Shown: piece after piece, positions 16,084 through 50,528 of the stretch
How the letters are laid out: every line of letters starts with the position of its first letter
Numbering within the stretch: the stretch's first letter is position 1
Notes under the pieces: model-generated
Seen by the model: the letters and a program-made list of their open reading frames with translations, nothing else
Told to the model about the DNA's origin: nothing
Databases searched by the model: none
IMG/VR virus record: IMGVR_UViG_3300037743_000136
Coordinates: 1-51,963 of that record
DNA: 51,963 nt
DNA from: a virus
Taxonomy: Duplodnaviria; Caudoviricetes
Reading direction: 5' to 3' (one strand)
Program-made: the position numbers and the translations under genes

Positions 16084-17609
16084 TACTCGTCACCGGAGGG
16101 CTCTTCGTCCGGGGGATCGTCGCCGCCCTCACCCTTGGCGGCTTTCGCCGACTCGATCGACTGGCGGAGGGCGAGCTCCTCAGCTTCCTTCGCCTCCTGC
16201 TCGAGTCGCTCGCGCTCGGCGAAGTCGACCGAGGTCTCGAAGGAATAGTGATCGGTGCCGAACCGGCTCCGGGCGCAGTCCTCGGGGGAGTAGACCATTG
16301 CCCCCATGTAGATTTCATCGGTCTTCGCCTGGTTCAGGCGAGCTACGCTCTTGTCGAGATTGCTCTCCTGCCACAGCGGGCGGTGCTCGATCGTCCACTT
16401 CTCCGGCTTGAGCTTCAGAGCGTGGAGCGCGATCTCGACCAAGCGCTTGACGGCCGGGGTCAGCTTCTTTTTCTGCATCGCCCCGACGCGGTCGTAGAAG
16501 AATCGGATATCGCTCTCGCCGGTGGCGTTCATGCCGCTCGGGGGCTGGCCCATGAGAAGGGTCAGCGGCATGTCCGCGGCGGCGGCGAGCATCGCGCTGA
16601 ACCGGTCGAGCATCTCCGGCATCCCGGTGATCGGGGTCTGCTGCCGACCGAACTCGTCTTCGGCGTCGATGATGACGGCGCGAGCGAAGCTTCGCGAGAG
16701 CTCGACGGCCTTCGTACGGACCTTGATCTCGTCGTCGCGATCCTCCGCCATAGCTGCGCCGAGTCCGCTGATCTTGTAGACTGCTTGCGCGAAGTCATTC
16801 AAGAGAACGGCGGCGGCGTCGAAGCCCATGCCGTGATCGACCAGGATCCGGTAGACGCGGGACAGGACCGAACCGCCCCAGCCGTTCTCTCCCTGCGCGT
16901 GGTCGTGCCTCGATACCCGGATGCCGGTGAACGCAATCAGACGGGACTCGTGAACGTAGAGCAGCTCGGGGGCGCTGGCGCCGCTCGAGCTCGGGCCCTT
17001 GGCGCTGGTGTTGATCTGGTAGATCTCAGGCTTGCCGAACTTCGGGGCGCGCGGATCGTTGTACCAGTATTGAGGGTAGATCTCGTGCGGCTCGAACGTC
17101 GTGAGCCAGTCGAGGGATCGAACACGCTCGGGGATAAGCGGCACCGACAGATCGCGGTGGTCGGTAACGCCGATAAGGATCGCCCCGCCTCCGTACGCGC
17201 GCTCGTAGCTCAGCCCTTCGTGGAGCGCTTCACAGGCTCCGATCTCGTCGAGCAGGGTCTCGACTTGCTCCTGTTGCTCTTTGACATCCTCAGCATCGCC
17301 CGCGAAGACGACGTCGAAGCCCTCGCGGAGCATCTCGTTCGGCCACGTCTCGACGATGCGGGCGGCGAGCGGGTTGCCGAGCCAGAGATCCTGGGCCTCC
17401 TGGCGGTCGACGGCGCAGTGGCGGAAGTCGGAGGCGGTCCGCTTGTCGTAGCCAATCGTCCCGACGCCGGTCAGAGCGTTGACCCAGCCGTCGCGGCGAT
17501 CGCTGTCGGTTCTCTTATGGTTGGAGTTCCGCGGTCTGCCCGGCCCGCCGGGGTTACCCTTGGCGAAGCGGCCGTTTTTCTGACGGTCCTCCGCCGTTTT
17601 TCGAGCCAT
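16083..17609 (-). CDS. Portal protein (DUF1073-like)
   Basis: ERAYGGGAI, VHESRLI, GWGGSVL, MPLTLLMGQPPSGMNATGESD..FYD. Confidence 0.9.
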   Translation of the reverse strand: MARKTAEDRQKNGRFAKGNPGGPGRPRNSNHKRTDSDRRDGWVNALTGVGTIGYDKRTASDFRHCAVDRQEAQDLWLGNPLAARIVETWPNEMLREGFDVVFAGDAEDVKEQQEQVETLLDEIGACEALHEGLSYERAYGGGAILIGVTDHRDLSVPLIPERVRSLDWLTTFEPHEIYPQYWYNDPRAPKFGKPEIYQINTSAKGPSSSGASAPELLYVHESRLIAFTGIRVSRHDHAQGENGWGGSVLSRVYRILVDHGMGFDAAAVLLNDFAQAVYKISGLGAAMAEDRDDEIKVRTKAVELSRSFARAVIIDAEDEFGRQQTPITGMPEMLDRFSAMLAAAADMPLTLLMGQPPSGMNATGESDIRFFYDRVGAMQKKKLTPAVKRLVEIALHALKLKPEKWTIEHRPLWQESNLDKSVARLNQAKTDEIYMGAMVYSPEDCARSRFGTDHYSFETSVDFAERERLEQEAKEAEELALRQSIESAKAAKGEGGDDPPDEEPSGDE

Positions 17610-17668: not shown

Positions 17669-17866
17669 ATGAGTAAAGGTGGCGCAAGGTTGGGAGCCGG
17701 CCGGAAGAAGAAGGCTGACGCCCGTACGATGGTCCTGCAGGTCCGTCTGTCCCGCGCGGAGCTCGATTCCGTCAGAGAAACGGCCAAAGCCCACGGGATG
17801 ACCCCGTCTGACCTCGTTCGGACGGCTTTGGGGCTGCGGACTTCGTTCGCCCCGGTCGATTTCTGA
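17669..17866 (+). CDS. Ribbon-helix-helix DNA-binding protein with GGAR.GAGR N-terminus
   Basis: VLQVRLSRAEL..V...A...GMTPSDLVR. Confidence 0.75.
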   Translation: MSKGGARLGAGRKKKADARTMVLQVRLSRAELDSVRETAKAHGMTPSDLVRTALGLRTSFAPVDF

Positions 17867-17876
17867 CGTTTTTCGC

Positions 17877-17911
17877 TTGCGGGCCACGATTTAGTGGGTA
17901 TACTGAGAAAT
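17877..17911 (+). promoter_or_regulatory. Sigma70-like leaderless promoter
   Basis: TTGCGG-N16-TATACT-gagaaat-ATG; near copies at 25439 and 25872. Confidence 0.7.
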
Positions 17912-18109
17912 ATGGACAGCGCGATTCACAGAGCCCTCAACAACTCCCTCATCACCGGCGACGCGGCCACCGTCCACGTTTCTGACATCAACTCGGCCCT
18001 CGCCGTCGCTATCAAGATGCTCAGCGGGGCGGTCGTGGACCGTCTTTACCGCGACACCGTCGACCTCTACACCGACGGACGCCTCTGGCTGCGGCTGGTG
18101 GCGGCGTAA
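17912..18109 (+). CDS. Hypothetical protein
   Basis: ATG 7 nt after TATACT; coupled to the next gene. Confidence 0.65.
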   Translation: MDSAIHRALNNSLITGDAATVHVSDINSALAVAIKMLSGAVVDRLYRDTVDLYTDGRLWLRLVAA

Positions 18110-20227: not shown

Positions 20228-22023
20228 AGCTTAGTCCGCTGCAGGGCGCGCTCGCCCCGCAAGTACGAAAGCCCCATACTAAGGCTATCTACCTGATCGT
20301 CGTGGGAGCCATTCGGAAAGACGGCGGTCTCATGGATGAAGTCATCGAGCCAGGGTGCCGCCATCGGTAGTAAGACGTTACCGCCCTCGACGATACCCAC
20401 GACCGAGAACGCACGGGACTCCTTCGAGACCCCCTTCGGATCCCAGTCCACGATCCCTGATAGATCGACCCGGAGCTCCACGATCACGTCGGAGCCCGCG
20501 GCCTTGTCCTCGATGACTAGCGTCGACGTGGGGTACTTCTTCCGAAGCTTGCGCGCCGCCGCCTTCATGTCGAGGATGTCCATCGGGGCGGTGATGTTGT
20601 CTAGGATGTATCGGTGAGGACCGCACTCCCCAAAGACCAGCATCGACGTTCTCGACCCCGTGACCGTCTTTTTCGCCGAACAGTCAACGGCAATGATGAT
20701 CCGGCGGAACGTCGGCAGTGGCTGACCGGGGTCGTAGTAGCGCCACCAGACTTTCTTGAACATCCCACCTTCCGCCGGCGCGGGTCGCTGTTGGTGCTGA
20801 CCAGCGAAGTAGTAGGAGCCTTTCGCCTTCTCCTCGGTGAGCGTCTTTCCGCCGAGCCGGGCAGGGTGAAGGAGCTCCCCGGGCTCGCGGTGGTCGTACT
20901 TCCCCAGGATGCTCGACTCGTTCCGGCAGTCCTCGCACTTACAGGCTAGCTTGTTCGAGGGCTGACCGAGCGACGGCTCGAACTCCGTCGGCAACCTGAC
21001 GTGACGCCACGTGCTCTGCGCCAGGACGTGCCCAGCCCAGTCATCTTCGTGGAGCCGCTGCATGATGCCGATGCGGAGACAGCGCTTCCGACTGTTCACC
21101 CGGTTCTCGATCGCGGTGTCCCACTTATCGTTGACACCGGTTCGGATCAGCTCGCTATTGGCTTCCTTGGCGTCGAGGGGGTCGTCGATGATGATGATGT
21201 CCGAGCCCTCGCCGGTGATCTTCTCGTTCGTCGTCGCTGAGTGTCGCTCGCCTCCGACGGAGTTCTGATAGAGCTCGATGGCGTCGATGTCCGGGCGGAT
21301 CTTCCACGCCGGATCGAAAGCTTGCTGGTACCACTCCGAAGAGATCAGGTCGCGACTCGCGCGGGCGGCCTTAGTTCTGACCTTGCCGTTGCCGGAGAGG
21401 TATCGGATCTTGATGCTTGGATCGTGGAGCCATAGCCACGCCGGAAAGAAAACGCCGCAGATTTCGGTTTTCAGACTGCGTGGGGGGACGTTGATCAGTA
21501 GATTCTTGTCATCGAGCTCGTATGTCTCTTCGTTCTCTGGATCCCGGAGCGCTTTGTCTCTGACGTCGAGAAGCTTGAAAGCTAAAAATTGAAGGTGGTC
21601 ACAGATCGTTTTGAGGTGCCAGTTCCAGCTGAGTGGCTCGCCTGGGTGGATCGTCTCCCATGCCTGGCGCACGAACTCGTGCAGCGCTTTCTTCGCCTCC
21701 GGTCCACGCCGCTTCGCCTTGGCTTTTTTGATGCGCTCGAGTCGGTCGGCGAGTTTCCTCAGCTTCGCCGCCTGGATTCTCTCGAGTCTGGCCTCGAGGC
21801 TGTCTGATCGCTTCTGGGAGAGCGGGACTACGGGAGGGTATTGTTTCCCGGTAGTGTGTGAGTCTGGCAGCTCACTGTCGTTGACGGCGCTCCACCTCAG
21901 CTCAGAGAGCCACACTTGCTGGTCTTCATGATCTAAACCTTCCCAGTTCTCAGGAAACTTTAGCGGAGGGCAGATCGGGCATGAGCCGACCTTCGCAACA
22001 AGTAGTTTGTGTGTGCAGCTCAA
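20224..22023 (-). CDS. terL: Terminase large subunit
   Basis: INVPPRSLKT, IIIDDP, MQRLHEDD, QQRP, IEDKAAG, FPNGSHDDQVD. Confidence 0.95.
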   Translation of the reverse strand: MSCTHKLLVAKVGSCPICPPLKFPENWEGLDHEDQQVWLSELRWSAVNDSELPDSHTTGKQYPPVVPLSQKRSDSLEARLERIQAAKLRKLADRLERIKKAKAKRRGPEAKKALHEFVRQAWETIHPGEPLSWNWHLKTICDHLQFLAFKLLDVRDKALRDPENEETYELDDKNLLINVPPRSLKTEICGVFFPAWLWLHDPSIKIRYLSGNGKVRTKAARASRDLISSEWYQQAFDPAWKIRPDIDAIELYQNSVGGERHSATTNEKITGEGSDIIIIDDPLDAKEANSELIRTGVNDKWDTAIENRVNSRKRCLRIGIMQRLHEDDWAGHVLAQSTWRHVRLPTEFEPSLGQPSNKLACKCEDCRNESSILGKYDHREPGELLHPARLGGKTLTEEKAKGSYYFAGQHQQRPAPAEGGMFKKVWWRYYDPGQPLPTFRRIIIAVDCSAKKTVTGSRTSMLVFGECGPHRYILDNITAPMDILDMKAAARKLRKKYPTSTLVIEDKAAGSDVIVELRVDLSGIVDWDPKGVSKESRAFSVVGIVEGGNVLLPMAAPWLDDFIHETAVFPNGSHDDQVDSLSMGLSYLRGERALQRTKL

Positions 22024-22703: not shown

Positions 22704-22934
22704 CTATTTAACGCCCTGGCGACCAAGAGTATTCCGTTGCCACGGAAACAAAGATTTCTGACTGATCGATCGGTGTGGGTACAGATTCTTACACCGATCT
22801 GATCGATCGTCGGCGTTCGTTGCGCGCCTGGGGGGCCCACCCCCCACCCCCGGGTCCGCCGCCGCGATCGGGGGGGGTGGGCAGATCGGGCACGAGCCGA
22901 CCTTCCTCACTAGCAGCGCGTGTGTGCAGCCCAC
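22704..22934 (-). pseudogene. Orphan copy of the terL 5' end
   Basis: MGCTHALLVRKVGSCPICPP versus TerL MSCTHKLLVAKVGSCPICPP, then diverges. Confidence 0.6.
22710..22735 (-). promoter_or_regulatory. ECF-sigma-type promoter (GGAAT-N18-GTT)
   Basis: Ends 8 nt before ATG 22701. Confidence 0.65.
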
Positions 22935-23590
22935 TACGGCCTTGCTTCCTTCGCTCGTCGCCTCGCCATGGACACGCTACACCCGAGCTCGTCGGCGATA
23001 GTCTTCCAACTGCACCCTTGCTGACGCATGTCGCGCACGTCGTCGGCGCTAGGACCCTTACCCTTAGGCCTCCCTAGCGTCTTTCCTTTGGCCCTAGCCC
23101 TCTCGAGCCCCAACATGGTGCGCTCACGTATCAGATCGCGCTCGAACTCCGCCACAGCAGCTAGCACCCCCAGGAGAAGCCTTGACATGGCATCACCGCC
23201 CGGCTTGACGTCGAGCCCCTGTGTGACGGCGACGAAGCGAACGCCGGCGCTGGCGAGCGCCTCGATGTTGGCGAGGACGTCGAGCGAGCTGCGCCCGAAG
23301 CGATCGAGCTTCCACACCGCCACGGCGTCGATTTCACCCTTCCTAGCGGACTCAAGGACTCGTTGTAGCCCCGGACGGCCGTTCCACGCCCCGCTGGCGG
23401 TCTCCGTAACGTCGAGCGCTACGGAGCCTCCCTGTCGCTCTGCCCAGCCCTCGAGCTCCTTGCGCGCTAGCGTCGGGTCCTGGTCGAGCGTCGAGACGCG
23501 GTGGTAGATCCCGACGCGAAGCCCTGTCGAAATCGGGGCGTCAGAGACGCTAAAGCTAAGCGTGCGAGAAGTAGGGATTGAGTTGCGCAT
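22934..23590 (-). CDS. Small serine recombinase (resolvase/invertase) with C-terminal HTH
   Basis: YHRVST.DQ, SGA..RPGL, VWKLDRFGRS, AEFER.LIRER, LGRP. Confidence 0.92.
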   Translation of the reverse strand: MRNSIPTSRTLSFSVSDAPISTGLRVGIYHRVSTLDQDPTLARKELEGWAERQGGSVALDVTETASGAWNGRPGLQRVLESARKGEIDAVAVWKLDRFGRSSLDVLANIEALASAGVRFVAVTQGLDVKPGGDAMSRLLLGVLAAVAEFERDLIRERTMLGLERARAKGKTLGRPKGKGPSADDVRDMRQQGCSWKTIADELGCSVSMARRRAKEARP

Positions 23591-23629: not shown

Positions 23630-24121
23630 TCAAGACTTCCGCTTCGCCTTCTTTTTGGCGAAGGCGATGTCTCGGTTGCGCTGCTTCTCGGCGGCCTCGA
23701 GGTCGGCGAGCGTTAGGGTCCTCGGCGCGGGCAGAGACTTCGGCTCTTCGATGATCTCGACGTCGATGATCTCCCCTGAGAGCTGCGCGCGGGCGAGCGC
23801 TTCCTCCGCCTCGAGTTCCTCGAGGGTGAGGCCATCGAACTCGGCGTCGACCTGGGCGACCTCGATGACCTGGGCAGGCTTCTTGAAGCCCCGCTCGGCG
23901 AGCCACGTGGCGGCGGCGACTCGGATCTGCTCGGAGTGCGACTCGAAGACGAGTCGGTTCATCTCCATCACTAGTGCGTGCTGATCCGTGTATTTGCGGA
24001 TTGTCTCGGCCAGCGAGGTCGTGGAGCGGGGGCGGCCGCGGGGGTTCGGCGAGGGTCCGCCCTTGCGCCAGGCAGGGTTCCCCATGGGCTTAGGTGCCCG
24101 TTTTTGTTCATGATCAGACAA
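23630..24121 (-). CDS. terS: Terminase small subunit (DUF5681-like N-terminus); start uncertain
   Basis: WRKGGPSPNPRGRP, WLAERGF.KP, LTLEEL; upstream of terL. Confidence 0.75.
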   Translation of the reverse strand: MSDHEQKRAPKPMGNPAWRKGGPSPNPRGRPRSTTSLAETIRKYTDQHALVMEMNRLVFESHSEQIRVAAATWLAERGFKKPAQVIEVAQVDAEFDGLTLEELEAEEALARAQLSGEIIDVEIIEEPKSLPAPRTLTLADLEAAEKQRNRDIAFAKKKAKRKS

Positions 24122-24139
24122 CGTTGGACAAAGTCTAAC

Positions 24140-24219
24140 ACCGAATGATCATTCGGTAAATGCGGTCTGACCACTCAGGCCCGTTGTCGAACGGTCATTC
24201 GGTAATTGTGGTCAGACCA
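24140..24219. repeat. 18-bp palindrome plus 25-bp direct repeat upstream of terS
   Basis: ACCGAATGATCATTCGGT at 24140-24157; 24149-24173 versus 24195-24219 match at 22/25. Confidence 0.8.
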
Positions 24220-24358
24220 ATTGGGCGTACGATAGACAGAGTCTAAACGTATTACGCGAAAGTGCATTCGGCGTGTAATACGTGGTAGGAGAGGTTTTCT
24301 GACGCCGAACGGAAAAAATCAGCCCTAGTGTAACCTGGCTTACATAAAGGTATGAACC

Positions 24359-24675
24359 GGAATGAAGACAAAAGGCGAATCGCCCAACCTTGCGGTATTA
24401 TTGGGAAATCAGCGTTTGTCTTCATTCCCGGCAAAAAAGGGCGATTGGACCTAAGTTCAGGTAACCATTAACTTCTCTTCATTCCCGCTCGAAATTGAAA
24501 ACGCTCGTCAAATACCTCGTCATACGGTCGCCTTCATTCCCGGGCAGGGTATGAAGATTCGCCTTTAATAACGTGAGTTTAACTGTCTTCATTCCCGACC
24601 CTATCTTCGTTCCGGGAATGAAGGCCTGTCTTCATTCCCCCACCCCCACCCTTATAGGGTGGGTGGAATGGAGAC
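24359..24675. repeat. Iteron-like array of about 10 GTCTTCATTCCCG-type repeats in both orientations; candidate origin
   Basis: Copies at 24359, 24418, 24475, 24530, 24548, 24585, 24603, 24613, 24628 and 24665; locally AT-rich non-coding DNA. Confidence 0.8.
24570..24595 (-). promoter_or_regulatory. ECF-sigma-type promoter facing terS
   Basis: GGAAT-N18-GTT whose -35 element is one array repeat. Confidence 0.45.
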
Positions 24676-24778
24676 GATCGAAGAGGATTGAGACCACGAT
24701 CAGGTAAGAAATTTTTCACCACAGGTTTATTTTCGTGCGCGTCGGAATTTTCTCTGACCGTATTTCGTTTTCCTGGTC

Positions 24779-25030
24779 ATGCTCACTGACACTGACATAG
24801 CGATACTCGAGACCCTCGAAGATGCTCTATGGCTCCGCTACCCAGACAAGCGAAAGATGACGCAGGCCGCCATTAGGGCTAGCGTTCACGGGAATCAGGA
24901 GCGGGTAAACGTCGCACTGCATGACCTCTGCCGTCGCGGGCTGGTCGCTCGGAAGATGCGTGGCATCAAACCCATGGGCTGGGTGATCACCGAAGCCGGA
25001 CTCAAGTCGACCGTCTCACCAGTCGCCTGA
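24779..25030 (+). CDS. Stand-alone winged-helix protein, paralog of the primase-helicase C-terminus
   Basis: 40/67 identical, ungapped, to the C-terminal domain of 50525..51963. Confidence 0.8.
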   Translation: MLTDTDIAILETLEDALWLRYPDKRKMTQAAIRASVHGNQERVNVALHDLCRRGLVARKMRGIKPMGWVITEAGLKSTVSPVA

Positions 25031-25111
25031 AGCCCTGAGCGCCCCCGTAACGCAAGCGCGCCCGACCCCTTCCGAGGACCGGGCGCGAGCGCCGAACGTG
25101 CTTAGGAGCGA

Positions 25112-26062: not shown

Positions 26063-26749
26063 ATGATGGTCATCACGAGAAAGACTCTCGAAACCCTGCT
26101 CAAACGTTCATGCCCGTCGAAAGACGACACGCGGCGGCATCTCATGGCGCTCCGCTTCGAGGGCAGCTCCTGTGTTTCGACCGACGGTCACCGAATCCAC
26201 GTGCTCCCGGTCGCCTGCGACGGTGAGATCACCGCTAACGTCCCTGTGTGGGCGATTCAGGCGGCTCTGGCTGCCCTCGATAAGGATCAGGCGCCGATCG
26301 GTATCACCGCTCTCGCGGGCAAGATTGCGATCGACTTCCCCGGCCGCGACGGGAAGAACACGATCCGCACCCACGGCGACAGCTTCCCTCCCTGGCAGCA
26401 AGTCACCTCGAGCGGCGCGCCCGAGGCGACACTCGCCGGGAAGATCAGCGGGCTCCTGAAGCTCGCCCGAGGCATAAAGGCGGAAGCGATCGTGTTCGTC
26501 GGGCAGGGTAACTGCAAGGTCGCCGTCTTCGCTGAGGGCGACCCTGGAAATGTCGTCGTGGTCCTCGAGTGTGATCAGAGTTGGTCCGGCAGAGTCGGAC
26601 TCAATCCTCGATACCTGGTTGACGGTCTCATGGCGCTCAAGTCCACCGGATCGACCGAGTGCACCCTCGATGTCCACGGCGAGCTCGAGCCTGTCAAGCT
26701 CGAGGGCAACAGCGGCGGGGTGGTCGTCATCATGCCCCGGAGAGTCTGA
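26063..26749 (+). CDS. Beta sliding-clamp-like protein (two domains, 228 aa)
   Basis: VSTDGHRI, FPPWQQV, GLNPRYL.DGL, VIMPRRV match DnaN domain II-III motifs. Confidence 0.8.
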   Translation: MMVITRKTLETLLKRSCPSKDDTRRHLMALRFEGSSCVSTDGHRIHVLPVACDGEITANVPVWAIQAALAALDKDQAPIGITALAGKIAIDFPGRDGKNTIRTHGDSFPPWQQVTSSGAPEATLAGKISGLLKLARGIKAEAIVFVGQGNCKVAVFAEGDPGNVVVVLECDQSWSGRVGLNPRYLVDGLMALKSTGSTECTLDVHGELEPVKLEGNSGGVVVIMPRRV

Positions 26750-27330
26750 TGCGCCACCAGCACGACACCATCCCCGGCGACGTCTCCCTGTGCCAGTGCG
26801 GGCAGGGCAGGGCTCACCTTACCTGCGACTGCTTCGGTAGGGCTCTCGAGCACCGTCGCGAGCTCTACGCCCGGGCACTGCAGCTCACCCGCAACCGCGC
26901 CCTCGCCGAGGACGTGTTGCAGGAAACCCTGACCCGGGCGTTCGGTGCCTGGGAGCGCTTCGACGGGCGGAACGTCCGTGCTTGGCTTCACCGGATTCTG
27001 ACGAACGCATTCATTACGCACTGGCGGTCGGAGTCCCGAGGGCGGATCGCTAGGGATCGCCTTCGGCGTGAGCTCGATGAGGCGGTCGGGCCGGATGTCC
27101 CTGAGGGCCTGTCAGACGAAGTCCAGGCCGCGCTCTTGTCGCTGCCGATGTGTTACTGGTCGGTGATCGTCCTGGCAGACATGAAGGGCGAGAGCTACCG
27201 CCGGATTGCTGAGATGATCGGCGCCCCGATCGGGACCGTGATGTCTCGCTTGTTCCGCGGACGGCGGCTCCTTCGCTCGGCTTTGAGTGAGTACGCTCGT
27301 GCGGAGTATGGGCTGTCAGGCAGCATGTAA
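26749..27330 (+). CDS. ECF sigma-70 factor (SigH/SigR-like)
   Basis: AEDVLQET..RAF, NVRAWLHRILTNAFI, SYRRIAEMIGAPIGTVMSRLFRGRRLL; TGATG coupling to the clamp gene. Confidence 0.88.
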   Translation: MRHQHDTIPGDVSLCQCGQGRAHLTCDCFGRALEHRRELYARALQLTRNRALAEDVLQETLTRAFGAWERFDGRNVRAWLHRILTNAFITHWRSESRGRIARDRLRRELDEAVGPDVPEGLSDEVQAALLSLPMCYWSVIVLADMKGESYRRIAEMIGAPIGTVMSRLFRGRRLLRSALSEYARAEYGLSGSM

Positions 27331-27378: not shown

Positions 27379-27509
27379 ATGCTGACCGGTGAGGACTCCT
27401 GACCGCCCCAGATCGCTACAGTGTCGCGAAAGAGATCACCAGTGAACCCCGCTTCCCTGCGAATTTGCTGATACCGGATCCGGACCGGGTATTGCTTTAT
27501 TCCGACTCA

Positions 27510-28289
27510 ATGTCGAAAGTAACCCGAGACGACCTGGCAAATCTCATAAACCGCGCCCTGCGCCTGCAGGAGAAGTCTCTAGAGCTGTATGGAGAGCTCT
27601 CTGACAAGTTCGAGGAGCTCGAGCCGAACGGTTATAGCCGCGTGCCGGACTCCCCTGACACGCCGGTGCACGACCGCGTGCTAGAGATCGTTTCGAGTTC
27701 TGACAAGGGCGTGACCTTCGTCGATTTGGTCACCGAGATCCCTGCTCCCTTGGCGGTGTTCGAGGCGTGCGAGCATCTCGTGGCGTCGGGTTTGGTTCTG
27801 AAGCTCGGAGAGCTCCCTCCTAGATTCTTCCGGCCGGATCAGGGAACGGTCGACGTCAGCCTACTGCAGTCAGACTACAAGAGCGTCCACGTCGGCGACA
27901 GCCGTAAACTGCTCGACGCAGCCCGGCGACTATGGTCAGAGTACCCTTGGACGCAGAAAGACGTCATGCGTTTGACCGGCGCCACGACCACCGGAAAGGT
28001 AGACTCTCGCCGGCAGACACTCGAGGGCGAGGGACTGGTGAAGCTCGAGCGCGGGCGCTACTTCCTACCGCCGGCCGGTCAGAGGCGTCCTCTGGAGATC
28101 CCCGGTCGGGAGAAACTCACAAAGCGCACCCGTCTGAAGAAAGGACGGCACCTAGAGCGCGGCGAGGTCTTCGACGTCAAACGCGCTAGGGATCTCCTCG
28201 AGAAGGGTCACACTCAGAGCGAAGTCGCCGACCACCTCGGCGTGAGCGTCTCTAAGCTGCTTCGCTATCTTCGTCTTCGGTCTCGGTGA
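27510..28289 (+). CDS. Multi-HTH DNA-binding protein
   Basis: C-terminal ARDLLEKGHTQSEVADHLGVSVSKLLRYL; internal wHTH-like segments. Confidence 0.7.
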   Translation: MSKVTRDDLANLINRALRLQEKSLELYGELSDKFEELEPNGYSRVPDSPDTPVHDRVLEIVSSSDKGVTFVDLVTEIPAPLAVFEACEHLVASGLVLKLGELPPRFFRPDQGTVDVSLLQSDYKSVHVGDSRKLLDAARRLWSEYPWTQKDVMRLTGATTTGKVDSRRQTLEGEGLVKLERGRYFLPPAGQRRPLEIPGREKLTKRTRLKKGRHLERGEVFDVKRARDLLEKGHTQSEVADHLGVSVSKLLRYLRLRSR

Positions 28290-31645: not shown

Positions 31646-31788
31646 TTCGACCCCTTTCGAGCTTTCTTCGCCGCCTTCTTGCGGCGTTTGATCCATTTCC
31701 CGAGCGCCGTGTCGATCTGCCCGCCAATGGCGGTACCAATCGACCAGCCGCAGGACTTCGCGGCTTCCGTCAGAAACTCCCTGATCAG
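31642..31788 (-). CDS. Small basic hypothetical protein (start uncertain)
   Basis: Fills the gap after polymerase; Lys-rich tail. Confidence 0.4.
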   Translation of the reverse strand: MIREFLTEAAKSCGWSIGTAIGGQIDTALGKWIKRRKKAAKKARKGSK

Positions 31789-32837
31789 TTTGGAACCCAC
31801 GGGATCAACCTTCCTTCGGAGTAAACAGGCTCGGCGCCCTTGTACCACCGCCGCATTAGAGCCGGTGGGGCGGTCGCGGCGTCCGCGAGATCAGGGCAGA
31901 ACTCCTGCAGCGTCTTCACCATGATTTCAGACACCCGCTCCGCGGCGTCCGCGGCGACATCTTCAGGGCTCTCTCCGATGAATTCGTCATGCTGGAATAA
32001 AATCGACCTTGAGCCCCAGAGAGGCGAAGAGCGGTCCGTGTAGCACTCTTTCGCGATCCGGCAGAGTGCTTCCTTCGCAGCGTCCGCGGCGAGTGCTTGG
32101 AAATAACCGTTTGCGGCCTGGCAATATTCCAAGTTTCCTCTGACGCGGTCAGAGACGTGTTGGGTGATCTCGCCGTTCAGACCGCTGATGTATTTCAGAT
32201 AGGGACGGTTCTCCGGCCACTTGATGAACCACTTGTCGCGCAGACCCTCGCTGACCACGATACAGTGCCGGCACGTCGGCGGGATCTCTCGAGCCCGGTA
32301 GCCCCACTCCGTGACCATCTCTTCACCACAGCGCTCGGCGCCGTCGACCAACACGCAGAACCGAATCCCCTTGTAGCCCCGCGTGCCTTTTTTGTCGATC
32401 TCGACCGGACCGTTAGGGCAGGCGGTCGAGCCCTGCCCGTCGGAGCGGTAAGTGATGACCAGCGTCACCGCGCCACCGCCGCCCGGGTAAAGGAAGTTCG
32501 GCGGCTTCGACGCTTGGCGAATGTCGTCGAGAAACCCGCCCTTCTCACGGGCTAGCATCTCCTCGTAAGAGACGCCGGCGATGGTCGCTCCTAGGGCGTC
32601 GTGGACCTTGATTCCGGCGTTCAGGGCGTTGGCTAGCTCGCTATGCCCAACGATCCAGAGACAGCTCTGTGCGTGCGTGACGAGCTCGACGCCGCCCCAG
32701 TCAACGGAGAACAGCAGGTGATTAGGTCTCGCGACGAAGCAATCCCGAATGCCGCCCTTGCGGGGGAGCTGCTGAATCACTCCCCCGTAGGACGCGCGTC
32801 CCGTCGCCAGGAGCGGGTTAGGGTTTAGCGTTAGCAC
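31785..32837 (-). CDS. Family A DNA polymerase, C-terminal (palm/fingers) part
   Basis: ATGRAS, IRDCF, motif A DWGGVEL, motif B RQASKPPNF, FQALAAD..K, motif C HDE. Confidence 0.88.
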   Translation of the reverse strand: MLTLNPNPLLATGRASYGGVIQQLPRKGGIRDCFVARPNHLLFSVDWGGVELVTHAQSCLWIVGHSELANALNAGIKVHDALGATIAGVSYEEMLAREKGGFLDDIRQASKPPNFLYPGGGGAVTLVITYRSDGQGSTACPNGPVEIDKKGTRGYKGIRFCVLVDGAERCGEEMVTEWGYRAREIPPTCRHCIVVSEGLRDKWFIKWPENRPYLKYISGLNGEITQHVSDRVRGNLEYCQAANGYFQALAADAAKEALCRIAKECYTDRSSPLWGSRSILFQHDEFIGESPEDVAADAAERVSEIMVKTLQEFCPDLADAATAPPALMRRWYKGAEPVYSEGRLIPWVPN

Positions 32838-33130
32838 TATTCACCACCCCTGAGCGAACTGGGTCTGCGGCTGATCGATTTCCAACTCTGTCCAACAGGT
32901 TTGGCGGGAGCGCTGTTACCCTCCTGCAGGAAGTCCTCGAACGAGAGTCCTCGGTTCAGGAACTCGCGCTTCAACTTCGGCAGGGCGATCAGAAGGATCT
33001 GTTTGATCCGTTGCTTCGTCACCCCGAAGTGAGCGCCGATCTGCCAGAGCTGCATCGGACCGTTGACCTCGATCACCACGTGGAGACACTCACCGGAGGG
33101 CAGGGAACATGACTCGTCGCACTCATGCAC
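32837..33130 (-). CDS. Sigma-70 region-4-like HTH protein
   Basis: MQLWQIGAHFGVTKQRIKQI...ALPKLK. Confidence 0.65.
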   Translation of the reverse strand: MHECDESCSLPSGECLHVVIEVNGPMQLWQIGAHFGVTKQRIKQILLIALPKLKREFLNRGLSFEDFLQEGNSAPAKPVGQSWKSISRRPSSLRGGE

Positions 33131-33312
33131 TAGATGTCCCACTCGTAGGCTGCTCGGTGTGCCGCCTGGAAGGGCTCTTGACCTTCCTTGAGCCCTCCAA
33201 TGAAGTAGGCGAGCCACTCCACCAGAAGCCCGTGCTTGATCGCTTCCTCGATGATCACCGCGATGTCTTCCGCGACTTCGAACGGGATTGGTGTTTGTCC
33301 GGCGCTAGGCAT
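33130..33312 (-). CDS. Hypothetical protein
   Basis: Coupled 60-aa ORF between the polymerase halves. Confidence 0.55.
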   Translation of the reverse strand: MPSAGQTPIPFEVAEDIAVIIEEAIKHGLLVEWLAYFIGGLKEGQEPFQAAHRAAYEWDI

Positions 33313-34552
33313 TGTCGAGCCCCGATTTCAAGAATGGGATGTAAGTGGTCCGCAATTTGTCTTTCTCGGAGAAGTCAGCGAACGCCATCAGGAGCTCGTC
33401 GCCGGACTCGGATAGAGGGTCTCGCCCCGCGGCGACGTCGCCGGTAGGCGTCCGAGGGACGGAAGCGGAATCGAGGTCGATCCCCGTGCCCCCACACCCC
33501 GGGCAGTGCTTCTTATTCTTTGGGTGATCGACCTTGCCAGTGCCTCCGCAGGGCTCGCAGATCTCGACAGCCAGACCGCTCCCACCGCAAGGCTTGCACT
33601 TCGTCTGCCCCGGAACCTTGCCGCAGCCTCCGCACGTCACGCACTCACCTGAGCAACCATAGGCGCGAGCCAGCATCGACTTGATCAGGACGGTGTTTTT
33701 CTTCTCCGCTCCGGTCTTCGCCGAGACTTCCGGACGGCCGTCTTTTCCAAGTTTAAAAAACCCGGCGGATATGAACATCTCCAGATTCTTCGCGCGCTCC
33801 TCGGTGACCTCGCGCTCGAGATCGTCGACCGCCTCGCCATCGATCGCGAAGCCCCAGGCAGCCCCCAGGGCCATGCAGAACGCCGCGTATACCTGTCGGC
33901 TCTGGTCGTGGAGATTGCGGCTCTCCCACTTGCTGCCATCGCCACGGGGCCACAGACCGTGCTGAGCGAGCGCAACCTCGAGGGTGTTGACGGCGTCGTC
34001 GATCGGGTAGATCCGGGCGTCGGCCGGCCACTCCTCGATCGGGATGTCCTCAAGCAGCGCGTAAGACTTCCGCCACCGGTCGTTTACCTTGGCGTTGGTT
34101 CGCCCCAGCACGAGCTCCACGCACGTGGCGAGGCTGTAGCGCGTCGTTTGCTTGCCGGTGTCGGGGTTGATCAGCGGCCCGCCGTCAGGGCTCTTTCCTA
34201 GATGCCCCTCGGCGATCGCGTGCAGCGCCTCGCCTAGCTGAATGTCCCAGATCTCGCCGCGGTCGAGCTTGGCGAAGATCGGCTTTACCGCGTCGTATCC
34301 CCTTTTCATCCATTCGTAGGCGCAGACCAGAAGATCGTAAGAGATATTGGCGCCCACTAGAATCGACTCTGACGCGAGGATCGCCTTGAAGAGTTCAAGC
34401 GTGGCGTCTCGATTCAGAATCGTGCCCTGAATCTTCCCGTCAGAGATAGCGGCGACCGAACCGCAGACCAGAGGCGGCGCGGCTAGCCCGGGCTGGATTA
34501 GGTGCGTTTCCGTATCGAAGGCGACGAAGCGGGCGGGGTCAGTCACCAACAT
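33305..34552 (-). CDS. Family A DNA polymerase, N-terminal (3'-5' exonuclease/thumb) part with zinc-finger insertion
   Basis: ExoI FDTET, ExoII GANISYD, ExoIII YPIDDA, GFAID; four CxxCGGxG repeats; KLRTTYI. Confidence 0.85.
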   Translation of the reverse strand: MLVTDPARFVAFDTETHLIQPGLAAPPLVCGSVAAISDGKIQGTILNRDATLELFKAILASESILVGANISYDLLVCAYEWMKRGYDAVKPIFAKLDRGEIWDIQLGEALHAIAEGHLGKSPDGGPLINPDTGKQTTRYSLATCVELVLGRTNAKVNDRWRKSYALLEDIPIEEWPADARIYPIDDAVNTLEVALAQHGLWPRGDGSKWESRNLHDQSRQVYAAFCMALGAAWGFAIDGEAVDDLEREVTEERAKNLEMFISAGFFKLGKDGRPEVSAKTGAEKKNTVLIKSMLARAYGCSGECVTCGGCGKVPGQTKCKPCGGSGLAVEICEPCGGTGKVDHPKNKKHCPGCGGTGIDLDSASVPRTPTGDVAAGRDPLSESGDELLMAFADFSEKDKLRTTYIPFLKSGLDNA

Positions 34553-49779: not shown

Positions 49780-50528
49780 GACGACGCCTCGAGTTCTCTG
49801 ATAACCCAGCCAACGACCTCCGCGCACTGCGGAACGACCGAATTTCCTAGCGCTTTGAGACGGTCCACTCGATCGGGAACCCCATCATCCACTCCACATA
49901 CAGGGGGGACAGGAGGCCGCCAGCCCTCCCAAGAAACCCAACCGGAGCCGGGAGGCGTGCGCGCTTCGCCATCGTGTCCAGGCTCGGGCGCTCCTTGCCC
50001 ACCCGCCCCGCCGCGCCTCCCTTGTTCGACCCGTAGCGGCTCGCCGACGGCGTGGGCAATAAGAAAGACGCGCCGCCGTAGGTGAGGAGCCTCAACATTC
50101 GCCGCTGACAGAGGGAGCGGTAGCGTTTGGAAGCCGAGCTGTCCCAGGCCGGCGGTGACTTGATCGACCCAGCGCCGGGCGCCGGAGGCGACGTTCTCGA
50201 CGACGACCCACCGGGGGCGCAGCTCACCGATGACCCGGGCAAACTGAAACCACAGTCCCGAGCGCTCTCCAGCAAGGCCCGCGCCCTTGCCTGCGCCAGA
50301 GATGTCCTGGCAGGGGAAACCGCCACAGATGACATCGACGGGGCTAAGGTTGTGCTTTCCGACTGTGCAGACATCATCGAACCTTTCAACGTCAGGCCAG
50401 TGACGCTCGAGAATGAGACGGCAGAACTCCGATTGCTCGACCTGCCAAACCGTGTGCCCGAGCCCCGACCATTCGAGACCAAGTTCGAGCCCACCGATGC
50501 CGGAGAATAGCGAACCGATCCGCATCAT
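49773..50528 (-). CDS. DNA cytosine-5 methyltransferase (alpha polypeptide)
   Basis: FSGIGG, GFPCQD, ENV, RRRVF, LGNSVV. Confidence 0.92.
   Translation of the reverse strand: MMRIGSLFSGIGGLELGLEWSGLGHTVWQVEQSEFCRLILERHWPDVERFDDVCTVGKHNLSPVDVICGGFPCQDISGAGKGAGLAGERSGLWFQFARVIGELRPRWVVVENVASGARRWVDQVTAGLGQLGFQTLPLPLSAANVEAPHLRRRVFLIAHAVGEPLRVEQGRRGGAGGQGAPEPGHDGEARTPPGSGWVSWEGWRPPVPPVCGVDDGVPDRVDRLKALGNSVVPQCAEVVGWVIRELEASSE
49847..50335 (-). CDS. Alternative-frame beta polypeptide of the C5 MTase (start uncertain; 50098 also possible)
   Basis: LLPTPSAS...LSPLYVEWMMGFPIEWT, motif-IX-like, nested in the alpha gene. Confidence 0.65.
   Translation of the reverse strand: MSSVAVSPARTSLAQARARALLESARDCGFSLPGSSVSCAPGGSSSRTSPPAPGAGSIKSPPAWDSSASKRYRSLCQRRMLRLLTYGGASFLLPTPSASRYGSNKGGAAGRVGKERPSLDTMAKRARLPAPVGFLGRAGGLLSPLYVEWMMGFPIEWTVSKR

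Follow-up and report, generated by a model that had tools for sequence, protein, structure and literature searches.

A small gene in the genome of a sediment phage encodes, free-standing, the winged-helix domain with which the primase-helicase of the same phage ends. Judged by its sequence, this solo gene is a true paralogue of the helicase tail and a real gene kept by selection, and among close relatives it appears as an optional accessory cassette in a hot spot, not as a core part of origin control. It lies beside a large repeat array, for which the chances of being the replication origin are about evenly balanced. We tentatively favour a reading in which the product copies the DNA-binding tail of the initiator without its motor, would sit on the repeats and would thereby damp loading of the helicase, either that of the phage itself or that of incoming relatives.

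The window, meaning the whole stretch of DNA that was analysed, is the entire virus record IMGVR_UViG_3300037743_000136 (51,963 bp). Its source is a temperate tailed phage from sediment with its own replication genes. Genes are cut at both ends of the record (a baseplate-like ORF at 1–1246 and the primase-helicase at 50525–51963) and, despite a CheckV completeness of 100 %, the record is without about 7.4 kb found in a sister record, G001, which is circularly assembled, complete and 57,653 bp long, with direct terminal repeats. The comparison set consisted of three genomes, namely the window, G001 and G002, with both relatives coming from one metagenome. The window is syntenic with the two relatives at 75–95 % nucleotide identity, with many swapped cassettes. 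A tRNA search found none, and a search of Rfam gave one sub-threshold match to a miRNA family and nothing else. The genes that surround the locus are the following.

24121 down to 1, minus strand: packaging and structural genes
23630–24121, minus strand: first gene of this leftward block, with weak small-terminase/DUF5681 similarity (E 0.0027 and 0.0016, both below curated cut-offs)
22934–23590, minus strand: small serine recombinase with a Resolvase domain (E 2e-36), between the terS-like gene and EndoVII/terL
26063–26749, plus strand: clamp-like protein
26659–27330, plus strand: sigma factor
31785–34552, minus strand: DNA-polymerase pieces
40040–41119, minus strand: tyrosine integrase

The minus-strand block runs from the weak terS/DUF5681 candidate, for which an in-frame ATG at 24085 is the likelier start, through the small serine recombinase and endonuclease VII to terL. 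Several methyltransferases are also encoded in the window. The serine recombinase, a candidate multimer resolvase or invertase, is 98 % identical across all three phages. The clamp-like protein has merely 29–32 % identity with its counterparts in G001 and G002, and a 274-aa protein with a C-terminal HTH_7 domain (27465–28289, plus strand) is 94 % identical in G001 and is replaced in G002 by a 28 %-identical homologue. The divergence of these two proteins indicates that replication-region genes are swapped as alleles within the phage group. Three copies of a CGAA-N6/7-TTCGG palindrome, which look like operators, lie just upstream of the terS-like gene (24140–24157, 24188–24203 and 24257–24271), the first two within a 39-nt direct repeat. 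The second palindrome is swapped in G001 for a different long palindrome, which recurs inside the G001 methyltransferase gene.

Paralogy was examined between the solo gene and the end of the primase-helicase gene.

24779–25030, plus strand: solo winged-helix gene, 83 aa plus stop, without internal stops, paralogous to the helicase tail
50525–51961, minus strand: primase-helicase gene, 478 aa, 5' end cut by the contig end, AAA_25 match with E 1e-28
50528–50779, minus strand: C-terminal winged-helix tail of the primase-helicase (truncated-ORF residues 395–478), from which the solo gene derives

In a BLASTP comparison with the 478-aa truncated primase-helicase, the solo protein aligned to residues 401–475 with 42 of 76 positions identical and one gap near the C-terminus (E 9e-23); the gap-free identity of 40 in 67 claimed by the sequence-only reading is contained in this alignment. 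A six-frame search of the record with the solo protein gave exactly two matches, the solo ORF itself and 50552–50767 on the minus strand. The helicase tail is thus 25.5 kb from the solo gene and the array, and on the other strand than the solo gene. The label primase-helicase rests on the AAA_25 match and on PHROG DNA-primase families that matched the N-terminal 300 aa of the full-length helicase of G002 (P0004, 707 aa; E 1.2e-14), the PHROG scan having covered these 300 aa and 30 proteins of the window.

Helices were predicted in the solo protein at residues 4–19 (H1), 29–36 (H2), 40–52 (the recognition helix, H3) and 72–78 (H4), with wing strands at 56–61 and 64–70. In the AF2 model (pLDDT 71) three helices form a bundle that is followed by a beta-hairpin wing, an arrangement that places the protein in the winged helix-turn-helix fold class. 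The closest folds were generic small winged helices, comprising regulators and centromere binders (MepR/MarR, IclR, ArsR and TubR) and the Rio2 N-terminus. Foldseek gave TMq values of 0.6–0.67 to MepR, TubR, RosR and Rio2 N-terminal domains (best E 0.028), and ESM Atlas structures gave TM values of 0.74–0.80 to small wHTH clusters; among the Foldseek and ESM Atlas matches none had E <= 0.001 and none was P4. The protein scored 14 bits against MarR_2 (PF12802), for which the cut-off is 27 (E 0.057), and matched PHROG 2440, annotated as 'transcriptional regulator', weakly (E 2.6e-4). A profile search of PDB sequences with the tail family gave three chance-level matches (E >= 1), none of them P4.

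Domain identities were used to place the duplication. The two solo proteins, from the window and G002, are 65 % identical to each other and 53–55 % identical to the helicase tails, while the tail is 42 % identical to that of the next helicase lineage and the solos are 34–35 % identical to that same tail. The solos are sisters by identity, which suggests a single partial duplication in this group of phages, after which the copy changed faster. Since a tail with the same GW..T..GR wing motif was found in 10 of the 13 more distant helicase homologues aligned, the tail is ancestral in the helicase family and the solo derived. The more distant helicases (P0010–P0022) have about 40 % identity. A further helicase, P0009, is 70 % identical, carries a D12-class Dam methyltransferase fused at its N-terminus and has a different C-terminal tail. 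The helicase tails of the three phages show two conservative differences, both outside the recognition helix. The hydrophobic core and the wing are conserved between solo and tail; in both solos the wing strand is derived and more basic, reading ARKMRG in place of the S/AQHLLG of the helicase tail. Differences between the solos are concentrated where the recognition helix begins (ERVNV in the window, VTLDA in G002), and there the window solo keeps the exposed Gln-x-Arg-x-Asn of the helicase tail.

The family of solos and tails is tiny. When a profile of solos plus tails was run exhaustively with HMMER against 1.84 billion representatives, six proteins reached E <= 0.001. Two of these are weak matches; the true members number four, namely the solo, the full-length helicase, the solo of G002 (annotated with a start that is too early) and a C-terminal fragment of another helicase. 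A tblastn search of 50,697 phage records with the solo protein gave no match, and a word-indexed search of 5.8 billion proteins returned the solo itself only. Scans of viral contigs with the solo protein, the tail alignment and P0009 found nothing beyond G001, G002, the fragment P0006 and the record, and a scan of metagenome contigs with the tail alignment gave 106 pattern matches, none of which was confirmed. Genome contigs scanned with the helicase alignment yielded eight loci in Proteobacteria and Myxococcota MAGs, all N-terminal or cut matches. The possibility that the solo is the relic of a helicase gene decayed in situ was rejected, as its reading direction leads away from the array, its start coincides exactly with the domain border in two lineages, and selection acts on it.

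Between the window and G002 the solo gene has a dN of 0.269 and a dS of 0.675 (omega 0.40), with more synonymous than non-synonymous differences (Fisher P 0.001). The helicase tail in the same two genomes has a dN of 0.011 and a dS of 0.245 (omega 0.04), so that the omega of the solo is 10 times that of the tail. When 70 random substitutions were simulated, the expected amino acid identity was 49 % with a 99.9th percentile of 60 %, as compared with 64–65 % observed; a random ORF stayed open in 16 % of these trials. The solo has the same start and a conserved core and wing in two lineages separated by a dS of 0.68. The sequence-only reading had proposed dN/dS as a check on decay, and the outcome points to a functional gene, not a decaying one.

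The solo gene is set between a conserved leader and a stable stem.

24675–24778, plus strand: leader between the array and the solo start, 76–81 % identical among the three phages
25032–25109, no strand assigned: GC-rich stem after the solo stop (-41.3 kcal/mol, z -4.9; stability reached by none of 200 shuffles)

G002 carries its solo at the same place. The homology of its cassette spans 24493–25111 of the window with 73.7 % identity, beginning within the array and ending shortly after the stem, and includes the stem, which is terminator-like without a T run. G001 has no copy of the solo (one match at E <= 10, the helicase tail) and keeps the array, its hairpin, the 100-bp leader and the position of the ATG, which there opens a Dam-type methyltransferase gene (PF05869, E 4e-15). 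Absence from relatives had been named as a ground against the sequence-only reading; the gene is missing in one of the two relatives and present in the other. Because G001 keeps the array without the solo, the solo is optional and not a fixed part of the function of the array.

The retention in G001 of the start codon position and leader before an unrelated gene suggests that the slot has working expression signals. As had been remarked from the sequence, no AGGAGG-like Shine–Dalgarno (SD) sequence precedes the solo. An SD-like 4-mer was found at 19 of the 76 longest-ORF starts in the record (background 12 %), and with few starts carrying such a word its absence from the solo says little. No promoter was recognised in front of the solo by a sigma-70 consensus scan, and several cassettes near it look leaderless. 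An ORF antisense to the solo is not conserved.

Small moron-like cassettes in these phages share one promoter design, consisting of TTTCTGACG, 7 nt, TTGCGC, 17 nt, TATACT, 7 nt and ATG; these look leaderless because TATACT is 7 nt from the ATG. They are located in the window at 17860–18109 (plus strand), 25923–25614 (minus strand) and 25489–25112 (minus strand), and in G002 (L008) at about 16469–16720. The N-termini of the minus-strand cassettes are alike, with M-(D/N)-N-T-N in the two of the window and M-M-N-T-P-N in that of G002. One cassette of this type is inserted in G002 between the terS-like gene and the array.

The gap between the terS-like gene and the solo ORF is 657 bp and contains the array with its hairpin.

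24359–24674, both strands: repeat array of ten units of the TCTTC(A/G)TTCC type, a candidate origin or other nucleoprotein assembly site
24645–24663, no strand assigned: hairpin in the array, with a 7-bp GC-rich stem and a 5-nt TTATA loop, conserved in the three phages

Six units start on the plus strand (24419, 24476, 24531, 24586, 24604 and 24629) and four on the minus strand (24359, 24548, 24615 and 24665), with a spacing of about 55 bp. TCTTCRTTCC with at most one mismatch was found 16 times in 51,963 bp as compared with 7.6 +/- 2.5 times in shuffles, and 10 of the 16 matches were within the array, a stretch of 316 bp in which about 0.05 would be expected. All seven exact copies of CTTCATTCC in the record fall inside it. 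No other repeat cluster in the record is as dense as the array, and no other lies outside the listed ORFs; only two further clusters reach four copies of an 8-mer, both within long ORFs by coordinates. Its GC content is 45–49 % versus about 62 % for the record, and the ten 300-bp segments of lowest GC all start at 24101–24551. The solo ATG is 104 bp past the last unit (a one-mismatch unit ending at 24674), in line with the distance of about 100 bp given by the sequence-only reading, and 140 bp past the last exact unit, which ends at 24638.

The stability of the array hairpin (-20.1 kcal/mol, z -1.8) is not exceptional. The hairpin word is also found in three other viral contigs (L015 12856–12874, L018 7840–7858 and L016 136–154), lying in L015 and L018 just after an apparent primase-helicase gene (by translation in L015, by homologous DNA in L018) with other short repeats flanking it. 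The hairpin was rejected as an origin signature, as about 1–2 matches are expected by chance and the single metagenome match (L037) is a plain bacterial terminator.

Unit positions are conserved in the three phages and unit sequences differ, as expected of protein-binding sites, for which positions are fixed while sequence changes. The units are CTTCATTCC in the window and CTTCGTTCC in G001; G002 combines CTTCATAC and CTTCGTTCT with a palindromic TCTTAAGAC type, the last forming a second unit type interleaved with the common one; the dominant unit differs by phage (CATTCC, CGTTCC or mixed). Co-variation of helicase tail, solo and repeats had been proposed as a check; in these three genomes the tail is nearly invariant whereas the arrays are pairwise only 61–65 % identical. 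This is not the co-variation expected of the tail as a specificity-determining binder. Single arrays contain both A and G variants, which leaves room for a binder that tolerates either. The changed helix of the G002 solo together with the extra palindromic units of the G002 array hints at co-change of solo and array (n=2).

Several properties of the array argue for an origin, namely that it is the dominant repeat cluster, has the lowest GC and is located at the junction of two gene blocks in a phage whose helicase has a predicted DNA-binding tail. The combination of a repeat cluster unique in the replicon with an AT-rich stretch is that of an iteron-type origin. Against this, the array does not adjoin the helicase gene, and no strand-composition switch of origin sign was found at the array. 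The cumulative GC-skew maximum of the window is at 21,867, 2.5 kb to the left of the array, and in G001, read in the orientation of the window, cumulative skew peaks locally at about 18–22 kb and bottoms at about 42 kb, some 20 kb away. The skew extreme near the array therefore has the sign of a terminus and a theta-type origin at the array is unsupported. A partition site was judged unlikely, given that no ParA/ParB-like gene was present among the 31 PHROG-scanned proteins and that a tyrosine integrase is encoded. The array is also a poor candidate for a res site of the small serine recombinase encoded two genes away, as the core of the unit is not palindromic like res subsites and the spacing does not fit.

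The mechanism that we tentatively propose starts from the partial duplication of the primase-helicase gene, of which the C-terminal winged-helix tail alone was kept. The resulting cassette (conserved leader, gene and terminator-like stem) occupies the swappable slot beside the single large array. The solo protein may bind the CTTC(A/G)TTCC units, or a subset of them, that would also be recognised by the helicase tail; the window copy shares its exposed Gln-x-Arg-x-Asn with the helicase. With these sites covered by a protein that has no motor, loading of the helicase at the candidate origin would be damped. The protein could be directed at the phage itself, through silencing in the lysogen or copy control, or at incoming relatives. 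An elaboration of this proposal that we consider unlikely is that the solo is an origin decoy, a swappable moron expressed from the prophage that would settle on the origin of related incomers or poison their helicase and so confer immunity at the level of replication, with helix and repeat types co-diversifying; the VTLDA helix start and new palindromic units of G002 are the hint in this direction.

Among the other explanations, that of a co-opted transcription regulator, which is somewhat unlikely, takes the solo to be a small regulator that represses or activates promoters near it (that of its own cassette, of the packaging/late operon to the left or of the morons to the right), unrelated to replication, with the array perhaps serving as its operator set. 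The nearest folds are MarR/IclR/ArsR-type and the weak family matches, to PHROG 2440 and below the cut-off to MarR_2, are to regulators. The solo is furthermore the first gene of a divergent intergenic hub holding the three palindromic operator-like sites, and its fast evolution with recognition-helix changes resembles that of immunity-region regulators. However, G001 keeps the array and the upstream region of the late operon without the solo, the leader of the solo itself has no palindromic operator, and the window solo retains the exposed recognition-helix residues of the helicase tail. Packaging could also explain the array. Sites of the pac or cos type are often found directly upstream of packaging genes, and the array immediately precedes the terS-like gene, behind which come the resolvase, EndoVII and terL. 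The array would then be a pac or cosB-like site read by the small terminase on its left, and the solo would merely have landed in an adjacent cassette hot spot and act elsewhere, for example at an origin at some other site. The units flank a central dyad, the right-hand slot is swappable (with the Dam methyltransferase in G001 and other small cassettes in G002) and GC skew gives no support for an origin. This explanation is nevertheless improbable, since the small terminase is only weakly assigned, with E about 2e-3 falling short of curated cut-offs, and its sequence shows 93 % identity among the phages, except for a swapped N-terminal stretch in G002, and so does not track the array.

The solo could instead act on protein and not on DNA, pairing with the helicase tail as a winged-helix heterodimer and altering its affinity or oligomer state at the origin. 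The analogy is with P4 Cnr, which acts on the origin-binding domain of alpha, and the conserved hydrophobic core and wing of solo and tail would suit such pairing; the basic wing strand ARKMRG looks like a change in DNA contact and not like a pairing interface. This alternative is improbable, slightly more so than that of a packaging site. Finally, the solo might be a functionless remnant, the helicase 3' end having been copied by illegitimate recombination and the frame having stayed open by chance, as did 16 % of the simulated ORFs. Its absence from G001, the lack of an SD and of a recognised promoter, and an omega 10 times that of the tail are consistent with this. The synonymous excess, an identity above the 99.9th percentile of the neutral simulation, and the persistence of start, core and wing in two lineages all argue against it, as does a third variant, roughly 87 % identical from the array-end hairpin to the solo start, in a second sediment study. 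A remnant is therefore very improbable.

If the solo does compete at an origin, it would represent a simple and evolvable form of replication control or block, in which the site-reading domain of the initiator is duplicated and the motor omitted. The phage would then provide a natural matched pair of a full initiator and its DNA-binding-only twin, which could help to find the origin of this uncultured phage group and to study the drift of initiator specificity.

The closest precedent is the satellite phage P4, in which Cnr acts by pairing with the tail of alpha. Yeo in 2002 reportedly described hetero-dimerisation of winged-helix proteins, and Ziegelin in 1997 is said to have dealt with the mechanism of Cnr. 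The remark in the sequence-only reading that no described system of this layout was known to it was hence too strong. The term 'P4 alpha-like' was apt for the layout of a C-terminal tail on a primase-helicase and did not extend to the motor, which is AAA_25/RepA-like and not SF3 (D5-type) as in P4. The solo and tail are without a sequence match to the P4 structure 1KA8, which is also not among the best 50 Foldseek matches listed. The helicase is thus, on these comparisons, not a homologue of P4 alpha, the likeness being one of layout only. Published extracts describe the alpha layout with its C-terminal winged helix (PDB 1KA8; PMC2777425) and the control of plasmid copy number by cnr (PMC8628076). 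Both replicons, as far as these extracts describe P4, have a primase-helicase with a C-terminal winged-helix tail and a small separate protein from the same replicon, which in P4 regulates replication via the tail or origin. Like Cnr, the solo is a small separate protein related to the initiator tail. Unlike Cnr, whose similarity to the tail is remote at best, it is an obvious recent paralogue; it is located by the array on the other strand and far from the helicase gene, whereas cnr is upstream of alpha in the replication operon; and it is optional among close relatives.

The array resembles P4 ori/crr, the Rep-ori of SaPIs and the system of pRN1 ORF904, so far as PMC2777425 describes them, in having many copies of a short repeat on both strands, a low GC content and a helicase that ends in a predicted DNA-binding tail. 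It differs from them in being away from the helicase gene and in its unit spacing, which in those systems is about 1–2 helical turns. Iteron origins of self-loading primase-helicases differ further from the present case, in which array and tail showed no co-variation in the three genomes and the sign of the GC skew is wrong for an origin. A search of the literature for a phage 'initiator-domain decoy', with supplements outside its scope, found nothing relevant. DNA-binding-only repressor forms are familiar from papillomavirus E2-TR/E8^E2, IS1 InsA and the Tn5 inhibitor, which occupy the same sites as the full protein and act as a competitive or dominant-negative brake. The solo is like these in keeping the site-recognition domain only. 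They arise, however, from the same gene through internal starts, splicing or frameshifting, whereas the solo is a separate, diverged and horizontally swappable gene with a putative role in competition.
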